Shown: in pieces, positions 7,235 to 33,113 of the stretch
Layout of the letters: each line of letters opens with the position of its first letter
Position numbering within the stretch: position 1 is the stretch's first letter
DNA from: Escherichia phage vB_EcoS_AKFV33
DNA: 64,000 bases
Sequence record: NC_017969.1
Reading direction: 5' to 3' (one strand)
Program-made: the position numbers and the translations under genes
Notes under the pieces: generated by a model
Told to the model about the DNA's origin: nothing
The model's input: only the letters and a program-made list of their open reading frames with translations
Database searches by the model: none

Positions 7235-7702
7235 TTAAGTTTTAGTGACAACAGGTTTATAGAATGTATGTCCCTTAATCTTAGTTGTTTTCTTAAATTT
7301 CTTTGTCCAGTAAGGTTTATCTTTACCACTATGGAAGTATAGTGCTCCATGTGTAGGATCTTGTGGTAAATCAACGTAGTATATCACTCTAGCTAAATTC
7401 TTAGCGGTTTGCCAAGCCTCATCAGTTTTATCAACTTTTGGTCTCTTAGATACCCAAGAGAACTGGTTAGACTGATATACTACTTTACAGTAGGAATCTG
7501 GGAATTTACCGGAGTTTACACGGTTTTTAGTAACATGTGCAATTGCCGTCATTCCCTTTATGCCCTCACCACGACTCTCGAAATAGATATTTTTAGCAAT
7601 GCAATCTATTTCTTTTGCATCGTGCGATGCCTGACTACTAAAGCTGAAGGTAAGGGCAGCTACTAAAAGCAAAGCTGCCTTCATTCTTTTTACTCCTGCC
7701 AA
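7235..7702 (-). CDS. secreted cell-wall hydrolase, SleB-like
   Basis: signal peptide MKAALLLVAALTFSFSSQA; IAKNIYFESRGEG...AIAHVTKNRV...YCKVVYQSNQFSW motifs. Confidence 0.6.
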   Translation of the reverse strand: MAGVKRMKAALLLVAALTFSFSSQASHDAKEIDCIAKNIYFESRGEGIKGMTAIAHVTKNRVNSGKFPDSYCKVVYQSNQFSWVSKRPKVDKTDEAWQTAKNLARVIYYVDLPQDPTHGALYFHSGKDKPYWTKKFKKTTKIKGHTFYKPVVTKT

Positions 7703-8007
7703 TCATATTCAACACGATTGGGATTTTCTTTATACCCTAAGTCAAGCAAATCATTACGCATATTTTGCTTAGCTACTGGGTTCGAGGTTACTAGTACCAC
7801 TTTCTTTGGTCTCTGCCCAAATTCTAAGAGTAAACGAAGAATTTGATAACCTTCCATACCATCTACAGCCAAGTCATTATCCATATAAACGAAATGGCCG
7901 GTGGTATCAGTTTTATTCAGAAACTCTACAGCGGCTTCTGGGGTTCGAATGATAATGTCCATTCCGTGAAGATTACGCACATCATCAATCAAAATATGAA
8001 AAGTCAT
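7690..8007 (-). CDS. stand-alone receiver-domain-like protein (CheY-like fold?)
   Basis: ILIDDV (acidic pair), YMDNDL, VVLVTSNP, AKQ in REC-like order. Confidence 0.4.
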   Translation of the reverse strand: MTFHILIDDVRNLHGMDIIIRTPEAAVEFLNKTDTTGHFVYMDNDLAVDGMEGYQILRLLLEFGQRPKKVVLVTSNPVAKQNMRNDLLDLGYKENPNRVEYDWQE

Positions 8008-8037
8008 AATAGCCTCGTTTCATCAATTTAAAAATAT

Positions 8038-8066
8038 ATTATACATATAATTTAGTAGATTAGCAA
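8038..8066 (-). promoter_or_regulatory. early promoter (TTGCTA-17-TATAAT)
   Basis: motif read on minus strand. Confidence 0.5.
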
Positions 8067-8449
8067 ATACATTTTTAAATTGTGAAACTAGTAAACCGAT
8101 AAACAGCCTAGAGGCGCCACAGGCCATATCTTATGAGCCATGTACCTTTGATCTAGGGTTTGAATCATCAACGAATACTTTGCATCTTTTAGCTTTAGAA
8201 GTTTAGAAGTTTGAGTTCTTTAAACTTTTCAGCTTTCATACTTAAATGTTGATCTTTGAAGTTGTGTCGGTAATATCAACGACGCTTTGTTCTTACGTGT
8301 CAGCTTAAAAGGCTGGTGTAATAAACATAATCTCCAATAGATTATACTTTATAGTATGGTCAGCGGTCTTATTTAACCTCGTATTTCAACCGCTGCTGCG
8401 AGGTAAGATGCTTGGGCTTTCGTCTACCGATTTACTAGCTTTTAAATTA

Positions 8450-9088
8450 TTACTCTACTTCAATGAAGGTAGAAGCGTTAGACTCGGACAGAACAAAGTC
8501 AACATTTGTTGCAAAGTCCTGATATTCCTCGTCATGCTGCTTAATCAGCTTTTCCAGTTCCAGCGGATCAATCAAGAATGGAGTATTCTTGAGTTCCAGC
8601 AGGTTGAGCTGCATTTTAACTTCATCTTCGGAAGTTTTCTTATCGCGGGTAGCCATGCTATCCTGCAAACGCTCATATTTAGCATCAAACTGTGCTTTCT
8701 GCGTATTAAACTTAACCGTAGCGGCATGGAACTGCTTACGCATGTTAGCCAGTAGTTGGGCTTTAAGTTCCATAGAACGCTTAGCTTCAATTGCTTCCGC
8801 AACAGTCATCTTACGAGAGCCAATCTCAACGATTGTTTCCGCATTGCTTTTAATCAGAGCAGCTTTGATACGATCACGCTGGGACATCATATCCAGCAGA
8901 GACTGGAAATCAGTCTTAATACGAGTAGACAGATCAGCTACTTCGATTGCAGCGCCAACTACAACTTGGTTTTTATCCTTACCTTCACCAACAGCGATCA
9001 GAAGCTGCTGTTCAGTAGCTTTACGGATTTTAGCTTCCAGAGATTTGATAGTTGCCAGAGCGCGAGTTTTAGAAATACGAGTAGTCAT
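8450..9088 (-). CDS. hypothetical protein (212 aa), coiled-coil rich
   Basis: ORF track. Confidence 0.5.
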   Translation of the reverse strand: MTTRISKTRALATIKSLEAKIRKATEQQLLIAVGEGKDKNQVVVGAAIEVADLSTRIKTDFQSLLDMMSQRDRIKAALIKSNAETIVEIGSRKMTVAEAIEAKRSMELKAQLLANMRKQFHAATVKFNTQKAQFDAKYERLQDSMATRDKKTSEDEVKMQLNLLELKNTPFLIDPLELEKLIKQHDEEYQDFATNVDFVLSESNASTFIEVE

Positions 9089-9141
9089 TATTTGCTTCCT
9101 TATATGAAGTTTGAGATTTGAATTTGTTTAAAGTTGGTCTA

Positions 9142-9324
9142 TTACAGACCAATTGCCAGCAGAGTGCGTAGAACAGTATCATTACTGTTATCAATTTTAG
9201 GATTAGCACGATTTAGCAGATCAAAGATTTTCTGGATACCTGATTGACGTTCAGCCATACGACGGATACCCAGATTACGAGTAGCTTTCTTACCATTTTT
9301 ACGAACATTTTTAGATACTGGCAT
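9142..9324 (-). CDS. hypothetical basic protein (60 aa)
   Basis: ORF track. Confidence 0.4.
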   Translation of the reverse strand: MPVSKNVRKNGKKATRNLGIRRMAERQSGIQKIFDLLNRANPKIDNSNDTVLRTLLAIGL

Positions 9325-9394: not shown

Positions 9395-10096
9395 TCAAAT
9401 TTTCATTTTTTCGATCATAGCTGCAACACAATAGCTTTCAACTAAGGCATCAAATGCAGGATCATGCTTAACCGGATAGATCCCATAACGAATAGTGTCC
9501 ATCTTCTCCATTTTAGCTATTGCCCAGCTAATACCTTCGGTCTCTAGAGCCTTATAACTGTATCCAGCTTGCATCCAGAGATTACGAAGAGATCGAACAT
9601 TGCCCAAATTCCAGAATTTCCACGGAACTACCTCTTCATTGGTTCCAGCATGGAACGTGTTTGCAGAGTAGATAGTCATATCAAACTCTGGGCCATTGCC
9701 ATAATACAAAGCATTTTCACCTAGAGCCAACTCCATAATATTTTGAGCCATAGAGAAGGCAGCATAGTTTGAGCCTAATTTATTAGTGCAATGATGTTTA
9801 CCATTTTGGAAGGCAATCAGTTTTGGATTACGTTCCTTCATGGCTTCCATAATGTGGATAGCAGACGGGCTATTTTTAGCTTGATCCATCCAGAATGCTA
9901 GAGTAGATGCTGTAACTTTGGCACCAGAATTAAGCTGATCCTGCACATCCAAAGTAGCAAATACTAAGTCAGGGTCTTTATCAATCCCATGCATAGCCAC
10001 AAAAGCGAAAGAAGGCATTGCGATATGAGTAGTACCACAATCTCCTGGAGTTCCTAGAGATTCAATATCTAGCATACCAAATGGTTTTACTTTCAT
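9395..10096 (-). CDS. DEDD-family 3'-5' exonuclease
   Basis: Exo I motif MLDIESLG near N-terminus, Exo III-like HDPAFDA near C-terminus. Confidence 0.6.
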   Translation of the reverse strand: MKVKPFGMLDIESLGTPGDCGTTHIAMPSFAFVAMHGIDKDPDLVFATLDVQDQLNSGAKVTASTLAFWMDQAKNSPSAIHIMEAMKERNPKLIAFQNGKHHCTNKLGSNYAAFSMAQNIMELALGENALYYGNGPEFDMTIYSANTFHAGTNEEVVPWKFWNLGNVRSLRNLWMQAGYSYKALETEGISWAIAKMEKMDTIRYGIYPVKHDPAFDALVESYCVAAMIEKMKI

Positions 10097-31998: not shown

Positions 31999-32970
31999 AT
32001 GACTAATGTAAAAGAATTTATTAAACGCTGTCAAGAAGCATATTATCAAGGTATGTCTTTAATCTCTGATGAGGAGTATGATTGCCTGGTAAAACGCTTC
32101 CCATTAGAAGAAGAGATCGGACCTAAGGGTGATATTCCACATCTATATCGTATGTATTCTTTACAGAAAGTTTATTATAATCGTGGAGATAAACCCCCAT
32201 TTAACCCATTAGGTCAGGTAGAAACTGATAAGTTAGATGGTTGTGCGATTTCTCTGTTATATATTAATGGCGAATTTGTTCAAGCACTAACTCGTGGTAA
32301 TGGTATTCTAGGGAATGATGTCACAAGCAACGTAAGATTGCTGAACATCCCTCAAAAGATTTCCCAAAAAGTACCTACTCAAATCACTGGTGAAGTTCTA
32401 ATTACAAAAGAAGTAGAAAATAAACGTAACTTTGCCTCTGGTGCTATTAACCTCAAAGATAGCGATGATTTCGTACAACGTATCGGGGAAGGTGGTTTAA
32501 TCTTCGTTGCATACGGTATCCAGTGTTCTGCTGAATCTGTAGGTATTACAGAAACGTATTTAAAAGATATGCTTTGGCTAGAGAATGAGAACTTCTTAAC
32601 AGTTGTTAATGTGCGTTCCTTCTTTAAATGGATTCCGACGGACGGTAAAGTTGTTCGTATTAATGATAACAACAAATTCTTCCGTGAAGGCTGGACTAAT
32701 AAATTCCCTCGTGGAGCATTCGCTATTAAAGAGGATGAAGAAGGCGAGATTACAACTCTTACTAAAGTTGAATGGCAGGTAGGAGCTTCTGGTAAAGTAA
32801 CTCCAGTTGGTTATTTCGAACCGGTAATTATTGATGATGCTACAATTGTTAAAGCGACTCTTAATAACGTTGATTATATTAACTCTCTTGATCTAGAGAT
32901 CGGTTGCCAGATTCGAGTGATTCGTGCTGGTGGTGTAATCCCGTGCATAGTAGAGCGAGTATATGATTAA
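31999..32970 (+). CDS. ligA: NAD-dependent DNA ligase, N-terminal (adenylation/OB) half
   Basis: KxDG motif ETDKLDGCAIS and LTRGNGILGNDVT; ORF ends before zinc finger/HhH/BRCT. Confidence 0.8.
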   Translation: MTNVKEFIKRCQEAYYQGMSLISDEEYDCLVKRFPLEEEIGPKGDIPHLYRMYSLQKVYYNRGDKPPFNPLGQVETDKLDGCAISLLYINGEFVQALTRGNGILGNDVTSNVRLLNIPQKISQKVPTQITGEVLITKEVENKRNFASGAINLKDSDDFVQRIGEGGLIFVAYGIQCSAESVGITETYLKDMLWLENENFLTVVNVRSFFKWIPTDGKVVRINDNNKFFREGWTNKFPRGAFAIKEDEEGEITTLTKVEWQVGASGKVTPVGYFEPVIIDDATIVKATLNNVDYINSLDLEIGCQIRVIRAGGVIPCIVERVYD

Positions 32971-33020
32971 TACATAACCCTTTGCTACCCATCTACCATA
33001 TAGGAATTATAAAGTGGTTA

Positions 33021-33049
33021 TTGACATTTTCGCCGCTTAGGTATATACT
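33021..33049 (+). promoter_or_regulatory. sigma70 promoter (TTGACA-17-TATACT) between the ligase halves
   Basis: consensus -35 and spacing. Confidence 0.5.
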
Positions 33050-33113
33050 ATTATCATTCAGTTGAGGGATAGAAAGTTATGGCGAGGGTAAGCAAAGTTA
33101 GTTAAAATTGTAG

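Follow-up and report, generated by a model that had tools for sequence, protein, structure and literature searches.

A predicted multi-pseudoknotted non-coding RNA encoded directly behind a conserved protein gene in T5-like phages, and its candidate role as part of a protein-RNA module

According to the sequence analysis presented here, T5-like phages carry the gene of a highly structured non-coding RNA (ncRNA) of ~357 nt immediately behind the gene of a conserved 212-aa protein. The window that we analyzed is a stretch of 64,000 nt from Escherichia phage vB_EcoS_AKFV33 (NC_017969.1), in which the RNA would be read from 8441 to 8085 on the minus strand. It lies within the 442-bp gap (8008-8449) that the list of open reading frames (ORFs) leaves between the 212-aa ORF (8450-9088, minus strand; phrog_1491) and a 105-aa ORF (7690-8007, minus strand), in a neighborhood where all the genes are located on the minus strand. 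Fold z-scores and a family profile delimit the structured unit to 8085-8441 (minus strand), from the 5' arm to the 3' arm of a closing helix, P1. The original prediction for this DNA, made from the sequence alone, had proposed a structured non-coding stretch at 8067-8450. It underestimated the element, which belongs to a very widespread family of uncatalogued RNAs linked to the protein encoded upstream.

The fold of the minus strand reached -97.8 kcal/mol and was not equaled by any of 100 shuffled sequences (z = -5.3); the plus strand of the same stretch gave a z of -2.8. The proposal of a structured ncRNA on the transcribed strand therefore stands, as the covariation on which it had been made to depend is abundant. 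Regarding the proposed extent, the structured unit was recovered at 8085-8441, and positions 8038-8066 belong to a separate promoter on the minus strand. The region had also been described as GC-richer than the flanking DNA, which is incorrect: its GC content is 0.359 (8067-8450), or 0.378 for the RNA core, compared with 0.43 in the 212-aa gene, 0.384 in the 105-aa gene and 0.39 in the whole window, and the statement is true only with respect to the AT-rich promoter region at 8008-8084 (GC 0.195).

The 5' edge of the RNA is located 8 nt past the stop codon of the 212-aa gene. The closing helix P1 is formed by a 5' strand, AAGCUAGUAAAUCGGUAGAC (8422-8441), and a 3' strand, GUUUAUCGGUUUACUAGUUU (8085-8104), both on the minus strand; in the window it comprises 20 bp, including five G·U pairs that are possible only in the minus-strand RNA. 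Covariation was scored with our own scripts on composite alignments (P1 arms plus 3' domain), which replaced a full-length alignment and represented 27 diverse lineages. In these lineages P1 was 94.7% paired, with 13 of its 14 pairs changed on both sides, and in all members its borders are marked by a conserved GAA(A) (5' side) and GGCU (3' side). For the whole structure the covariation score was 0.76, against 0.21 for shuffled alignments (0 of 500 as high) and 0.12-0.20 when the registers were slid.

P1 is followed by a junction, J1 (GAAAGCCCAAGCAUCUU; 8405-8421, minus strand), with a conserved GAAA(A) of which the GAA is nearly invariant. Next comes an H-type pseudoknot, pseudoknot 1 (8361-8403, minus strand), composed of the helices S1 (CCUCG 8399-8403/CGAGG 8377-8381) and S2 (CAGCGGU 8389-8395/ACCGCUG 8361-8367). 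These helices correspond to the two overlapping stem-loops of the original prediction, which are real and interleaved (on the plus strand CAGCGGT 8361-8367/ACCGCTG 8389-8395 and CCTCG 8377-8381/CGAGG 8399-8403). The window sequence scored 36 for this pseudoknot, and the maximum among shuffles was 26. The same H-type topology was found 18-21 nt past P1 in approximately 22 of 26 lineages, at a mean score of 29.0 versus 20.7 for shuffles, in sequences unrelated to one another; examples are UCCUG/CAGGA with ACCUAUG/CAUAGGU, GCGUCC/GGACGU with UUCUCGC/GCGAGAG, and ACCCU/AGGGU with GGAGAGC/GCUCUCC. The hairpins that come after it (8266-8357, minus strand; AUACU/AGUAU, AAUCU/AGAUU, CAGC/GCUG and GUCG..CGAC) vary between lineages. 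Within the T5-like phages CAGC/GCUG is replaced by CAGA/UCUG, a compensatory change, and GUUGAU..ACCGAC by GUUGGU..ACCAAC; in distant members these hairpins are missing or different, and the RNA of Tepidibacter is only ~260 nt long.

Downstream of the variable hairpins, all members conserve an A-rich array of UYARAG-type units, which in the window occupies ~85 nt (8178-8261, minus strand; GC 0.29) and is probably single-stranded. Its units include UUCAAAG, UUUAAAG, CUCAAAC, UCUAAAC, UCUAAAG and UGCAAAG, among others. In 23 members the motif YARA[G/C] was 3.6-fold more frequent than in shuffled sequences, and of the 38 intervals between motifs, 20 measured 7 nt and another 7 measured 14 nt. A small central hairpin within the array covaries, by eye, in several members. 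The tandem repeat that had been noticed in this region also proved to be real: TTTAGAAG occurs twice as an exact match at 8194-8209 on the plus strand and is followed by a partial third copy, TTTGAG. On the RNA strand it reads CUUCUAAA twice, which corresponds to two units of the array.

In the 3' domain (8107-8161, minus strand) a conserved (U)CGAU.AAAUCC, with AAACCC at this place in the window, is followed by a helix, P5, that encloses a hairpin, P6. P5 pairs CCUAGA (8152-8157) with UCUAGG (8107-8112), plus A8159 with U8105, and P6 pairs GGCU (8136-8139) with GGCC (8122-8125) around the loop UAAGAU (8128-8133), all on the minus strand. The conserved GGCU at 8105-8108 abuts P1, and the 3' strand of P5 is gaplessly continuous with the closing helix. 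P5 was 99.1% paired, with four of five pairs covarying; P6, scored in two column sets as MAFFT misaligned it between sub-families, was 86-100% paired with covariation. The overall score was 0.455, compared with 0.112 for shuffles, none of 500 being as high.

The 3' end of J1 (AUCUUA, 8404-8409), immediately 5' of pseudoknot 1, is complementary to the P6 loop, and their pairing constitutes a second, long-range pseudoknot (pseudoknot 2). In 14 lineages the complementarity between J1 and the P6 loop was 14.5 for matched versus 8.8 for mismatched pairs, a value reached by none of 20000 permutations (2 of 5000 in a test with broader windows), and in 13 of the 14 the best partner for J1 was the P6 loop of the same RNA. 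J1 and the P6 loop change together across lineages: AUCUUA/UAAGAU in T5 becomes AUCUUG/CAAGAU in Klebsiella-type phages, and other lineages show UUACGC/GCGUAA, UUACA/UGUAA, UAAACA/UGUUUA, CAAAUG/CAUUUG, AAUUAUUC/GAAUAAUU, UAAAUG/CAUUUA, UAUAGA/UCUAUA and UCAGAC/GUCUGA.

The alignments also inform on the strand. Among the P1 and P5 alignment cells we counted 62 G·U or U·G and 10 A·C or C·A combinations, and since the former far outnumber the latter the structure belongs to the minus-strand RNA, and not to the DNA or to an antisense transcript. In agreement with the original prediction, the transcribed strand holds no credible ORF. Its sole candidate is a 34-aa minus-strand ORF (8023-8127), which is annotated in the records of T5 st0 and GEC_vB_N3 together with divergent promoters at 8028-8094; we rejected it as it overlaps the promoter of the next gene and a close relative (L018) has lost its ATG. 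On the strand opposite to the 212-aa gene, some records contain a long ORF that starts within the RNA (8309-9106, plus strand; T5p083 in AY692264, gp110 in GEC_vB_N3) and which in the window is broken into different frames (8408-8755 and 8589-9107). A reading based on T5p083 and on the plus-strand promoter of AY692264 was likewise rejected, in view of the broken ORFs and of the G·U to A·C asymmetry. The promoter region at 8014-8091 is an imperfect palindrome (77%), and the divergent promoters placed there in the T5 st0 record make an antisense plus-strand transcript running into the RNA conceivable.

Over 7600-9200 the window shares 100% identity with Salmonella phage vB_SalS_SA001 (Tequintavirus), and 439 T5-like records match this region. 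Across Tequintavirus and Epseptimavirus the identity of the gap amounts to 93-100%. From one genus to the other the RNA differs by 5.8% and the third codon positions of the adjacent gene by 29%, a fivefold slower divergence in the RNA, and therefore this noncoding DNA is under strong purifying selection. By means of the 212-aa protein, 63 IMG/VR loci were gathered, at protein identities down to 27-40%, and a crude alignment of them already revealed a common noncoding element 3' of the gene. An nhmmer profile of the core matched all 63 loci and five further ones (68 in total), always on the same strand and 106-397 nt (mostly 106-250) downstream of the stop codon; in general P1 begins 5-20 nt past that codon. 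In the window this profile produced a single match, at 8267-8092 on the minus strand (E = 1.6e-28). The protein family itself comprises 3257 clusters at 50% identity (E <= 1e-3), all of ~205-217 aa, and was present in 738 phage records, the hosts of which include Salmonella, Escherichia, Klebsiella, Erwinia, Pseudomonas, Vibrio, Bacillus, Lactococcus and Clostridioides, among others. The distribution of these sequences indicates an element far older than the T5-like phages.

Two copies reside in bacterial chromosomes, those of Tepidibacter hydrothermalis (CP120733; L108 6001-6940) and Solibacillus silvestris (L111 6001-6960). In both, the gene is followed by the RNA and by a strong intrinsic terminator, and the three stand by themselves among ordinary genes, without transfer RNAs (tRNAs) or phage genes nearby. 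The copy of Tepidibacter retains P1, pseudoknot 1, the array, P5/P6 and the match between J1 and the loop (AAAUAUAU/AUAUAUUU). These stand-alone units are the strongest argument for considering protein and RNA as one functional module.

Gene and RNA are probably transcribed together, the RNA being a 3' extension of the transcript of the gene, because no promoter separates them, they share the strand, and P1 lies close to the stop codon. Indeed, our scan detected no promoter-like site between the 212-aa gene and P1. The T5-type early promoter TTGCTA-17-TATAAT that it located at 8038-8066 (minus strand) is in the same gap as the RNA yet outside it, resembles other promoters of the window, is annotated at this site in the T5 and BF23 records, and serves the downstream 105-aa gene. 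At the other end, a same-strand tRNA begins 3-6 nt past the end of P1 in nine loci from at least four lineages (4 nt in the Klebsiella-phage type), and an intrinsic terminator follows the RNA in L096, L105/L106, L112 and KIL4. The 3' end could thus be set either by a terminator or by RNase P cleavage of the abutting tRNA, the latter because the tRNA starts so close to P1. In Salmonella phage PMBT31 (L005 1591-2103) a 170-aa HNH_3 homing-endonuclease ORF has been inserted exactly between the 3' arm of P1 and the downstream promoter, leaving the RNA intact. No terminator-like site was found in 7600-9300 of the window, and the element, which spans 357 nt and contains long-range helices, is neither an intrinsic terminator nor a simple 3' hairpin.

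The partner protein is a helical bundle of ~210 aa encoded in the early/tRNA region, and it had no match in Pfam, NCBIfam or PADLOC. In phrog_1491 and in many GenBank records the family is labeled 'tail fiber protein', which looks like a propagated misannotation. Same-strand tRNAs were found at 1.5 kb or less in 26 of 35 viral loci, and the window contains the T5 tRNA cluster (ARAGORN, Rfam). The 105-aa ORF encodes a cRec domain (PF20274, E = 3.8e-15), for which a role in processing cyclic phosphates has been predicted and which published work connects to RNA ligases and RNA repair (PMC7824862). Two genes upstream of the 212-aa gene, past a 60-aa ORF, a 233-aa Rv2179c-like 3'-5' exoribonuclease is encoded (9395-10096, minus strand; Pfam E = 1.6e-8; 'exonuclease' in PHROG); the GenBank label of this protein is 'metallopeptidase' or peptidase M14. 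In other phages the neighbors of the module include a T4-type RNA ligase, an AAA_33 kinase-like protein, Macro domains and a gene of the RNA_ligase family.

On these grounds we lean towards the view that protein and RNA cooperate, either in a dedicated ribonucleoprotein or in a two-component module, and our best guess is that the RNA would be the RNA subunit of such a module, linked to tRNA/RNA metabolism. The doubly pseudoknotted core, closed by P1 and with P5/P6 continuous with it, would constitute a rigid scaffold presenting the heptad array, A-rich and unstructured, as a multivalent platform for single-strand binding, whose ligand could be the partner protein in multiple copies or a factor of the host that binds or cleaves RNA. 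The module might serve the tRNA/RNA-repair side of the phage-host conflict. More tentatively, and with the odds somewhat against so broad a statement, the T5 element may be the founding example of an undescribed class of ribonucleoproteins that manipulate the tRNA/translation or RNA-decay machinery and have spread among thousands of phage lineages and Firmicutes chromosomes; tRNAs, ribosome-associated factors or host ribonucleases might then be captured on the codon-like UAA/CAA/UAG/CAG-AG units.

Several points weigh against this proposal. The protein is acidic to neutral (isoelectric point 5.2-7.9), which is untypical of an RNA-coating protein, and shows no recognizable RNA-binding domain. 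Strict adjacency would be equally expected if the RNA merely depended on the promoter of the gene. That tRNA and RNA-repair genes accompany the module may be no more than a consequence of its place in the early-gene region of large phages, and the bacterial copies have no such neighbors. In T5 itself the RNA is followed by neither a terminator nor a tRNA that would define its 3' end. As to the structure, the 5' arm of P1 was placed partly through a complementarity search, though it coincided with the independent GAA motif, and a few windows of the pseudoknot 2 test were picked by hand.

Other explanations were considered in the light of the same evidence. One of them is an 'ornate' RNA comparable to ROOL and GOLLD, which would fold and perhaps self-assemble without any protein, with the array as a disordered linker and the 212-aa protein linked through the promoter only. 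As in ROOL and GOLLD (PMC12286853), the RNA is phage-borne, multi-pseudoknotted and usually located by tRNA genes, and the explanation would account for the protein's lack of basic character and of an RNA-binding domain, as well as for the self-complementary loop or junction sequences of some members (UGUACA in L080; UUGUACAA in L091 and L094). However, we regard it as unlikely: protein and RNA are adjacent in 68 of 68 loci even though protein identity falls to 27-40%, they have traveled jointly into two bacterial chromosomes devoid of tRNAs or phage genes at those sites, and the RNA, much smaller at 260-450 nt, matched neither the ROOL nor the GOLLD model. Alternatively, the structure could be a cis-acting element in the 3' untranslated region of the 212-aa mRNA that stabilizes the transcript against 3' exonucleases, serves as an operator (translational or autoregulatory), or insulates the transcript from the transcription unit that follows. 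The absence of an own promoter, the start 5-20 nt past the stop codon, and the units of gene, structure and terminator found in bacteria and several phages would all fit such a role. Nevertheless, two pseudoknots, the conserved unpaired GAAA, AAAUCC and GGCUG, and a conserved, periodic single-stranded array far exceed what stabilization needs, and processing by RNase P at an abutting tRNA would presumably give the RNA a discrete 3' end, so we judge this role improbable.

Even less probable in our opinion is a stand-alone decoy or sponge, in which the AAAG|UU-type repeats would mimic the preferred sites of host single-strand endoribonucleases (RNase E or RNase Y type) or of a protein that binds A-rich RNA, for instance Hfq or S1, and would titrate the factor concerned, thereby protecting phage transcripts or tRNAs. 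This idea, built on the site preferences of RNase E and RNase Y, would suit an array that is periodic, conserved, A/U-rich, unstructured and mounted on a stable scaffold, with RNA-repair and tRNA genes in its neighborhood. Yet it leaves the partner protein and the bacterial chromosomal copies unexplained, the Gram-negative and Gram-positive hosts have different RNases, and we found no direct evidence for it. Finally, the region might not be an RNA gene at all, but a DNA-level element (inverted repeat, origin or promoter cluster), a decayed or small ORF, an antisense ORF, or a chance structure. The ORFs and divergent promoters annotated in T5 st0 and GEC_vB_N3, T5p083 included, and the palindromic promoter region would speak for this. 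The 62:10 asymmetry and the compensatory changes in four helices speak so clearly against it, together with the broken plus-strand ORF, the ATG of the 34-aa ORF lost in L018 and a 7-nt period that is not codon-like, that we attach almost no weight to it.

The RNA did not fall into any catalogued class. With Rfam 15, which the original prediction had named as a check, the whole window yielded only tRNAs at the gathering score; region 7900-8600 at E <= 10 yielded only a chance mir-84 match (E = 5); 14 distant loci yielded only tRNAs and, elsewhere, skipping-rope RNA; and the bacterial copies gave chance matches far below the gathering score (miRNA-type on the terminator hairpin, Enterococcus sRNA_1300 and RAGATH-27). 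Thus no Rfam family claimed the element, ROOL, GOLLD, transfer-messenger RNA (tmRNA), RNase P, 6S, Y RNA, OLE and raiA included. The closest analogs are ROOL/GOLLD in niche and tmRNA in layout.

In tmRNA, the 5' and 3' ends pair, a pseudoknot lies near the 5' side and a long A-rich segment is unstructured; in many bacteria smpB is located upstream of ssrA. The RNA described here likewise has a closing helix, a 5'-side pseudoknot, an A-rich segment and a partner gene immediately upstream, and in both a 3' arm stacks directly upon the closing helix and its loop makes contact with the 5' strand. Membership was nonetheless rejected. ARAGORN, applied to the window and to 39 loci, detected no tmRNA; P1 has 12-20 bp, and by eye there is no 7-bp acceptor stem, T-loop or CCA end; whichever frame of the array is read, stop triplets occur every 10-20 nt (by inspection). 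Unlike SmpB, which has a barrel, the 212-aa protein is a helical bundle.

OLE RNA is a large structured bacterial RNA whose partner protein, OapA, is encoded adjacent to it. The RNA of T5 resembles this pair in being an ncRNA beside the gene of a private protein; sequence, structure and protein are unrelated, the RNA is downstream in the same transcript, and its carriers are mainly phages and not extremophilic Firmicutes. OLE is mentioned in the same work as ROOL and GOLLD, which are described as phage or prophage RNAs of unknown function, often by tRNA islands, with multiple pseudoknots and with domains joined by a disordered linker (PMC12286853). Judged by genomic niche and ornate character alone, our RNA is similar to these two, as it is phage-borne, tRNA-adjacent and multi-pseudoknotted. 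It differs in its length (260-450 nt versus about 580-800+ nt), in not matching their Rfam models, and in lying always directly behind one conserved protein gene, whereas ROOL has no identified protein partner.

Other candidates were discarded as well. AAAUCC...GGCUG together with P1 superficially resembles the P4/P1 3' end of the E. coli M1 RNA, a resemblance that was left unsupported: an RNase P RNA (P4 core GGAAAGUCC ... ACAGAA..GGCUUA) was rejected since there was no Rfam match at E <= 10, BLAST revealed no similarity to any E. coli genome, and P5 encloses only a ~45-nt hairpin. ToxI-like RNAs of type III toxin-antitoxin systems consist of ~34-36-nt tandem repeats upstream of a gene for a ToxN/AbiQ-type endoribonuclease; here the repeats are 7-8 nt long and downstream of the gene, and the protein is a helical bundle without a PADLOC or Pfam match, so this class was also rejected. 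The species 1 and 2 of T4 are stable low-molecular-weight RNAs co-transcribed with phage tRNA clusters. With them, and with RNAIV and rna2 of T5 (annotated in AY692264, record positions 32841-33086), the present RNA shares the condition of a phage RNA in tRNA transcription units, with ends possibly generated by tRNA-processing enzymes. Those RNAs, in contrast, have about 100-140 nt, are encoded elsewhere in T5 and have no linked protein.

We therefore propose a family of 212-aa-protein-associated RNAs, defined by a P1 flanked by GAA(A) and GGCU, a pseudoknot 18-21 nt past P1, an A-rich heptad array, an AAAUCC-P5/P6 domain and a location directly 3' of a phrog_1491-type gene, all of which were found at 8085-8441. 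We rate the finding as a putative new class of RNA with a private protein partner. Large RNAs that contain several pseudoknots and in which unpaired nucleotides are deeply conserved have repeatedly proved to be ribozymes, sensors akin to riboswitches or assemblies like the ROOL and GOLLD cages. T5 has been studied for seventy years, and although roughly 470 related GenBank records contain the element, none of those that we examined annotates it. Nor did we find a description of it in the literature, a statement that does not cover a September 2026 bioRxiv preprint on the coevolutionary mining of ncRNA-protein systems (10.64898/2026.09.22.753630); papers on phage K and ICP1 report abundant phage long non-coding RNAs, whose link to this family is not established. 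The module is among the commoner uncharacterized features of large tRNA-carrying phages and also stands alone in bacteria. As T5 and E. coli are genetically tractable and the protein partner is obvious, the role of phage RNAs associated with tRNA islands becomes directly testable; at a minimum, the result is a corrected annotation and a candidate family for RNA databases.

Some further observations concern the neighborhood of the module. In L038 and L040, which are marine or metagenomic phages, a skipping-rope RNA (RF02924; 2142-2232, 61-63 bits) precedes the start of the protein gene by ~270 nt, and this gene is therefore flanked by two structured RNAs. Suppressor-type tRNAs (anticodons UUA and CUA) adjoin the module in L074 (265-337) and L102 (3203-3289); the units of the array read UAA, UAG, CAA or CAG followed by AG, and a tie between both may be coincidental. 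A gene for a SleB-type Hydrolase_2 and genes for M14 peptidases are found a few kb from the Solibacillus locus, and in T5 a SleB-type hydrolase is likewise encoded two genes downstream, which may also be a coincidence. The same early region of the window contains a SleB-like cell-wall hydrolase (PF07486; 7235-7702, minus strand) and an SPFH/Band 7 protein (4817-5764, minus strand). Two matches to the Rfam tRNA model RF00005 without an ARAGORN call (4011-4085 and 6376-6447, both minus strand; 38.2 and 35.5 bits) may be divergent or degenerate tRNAs of the T5 cluster.

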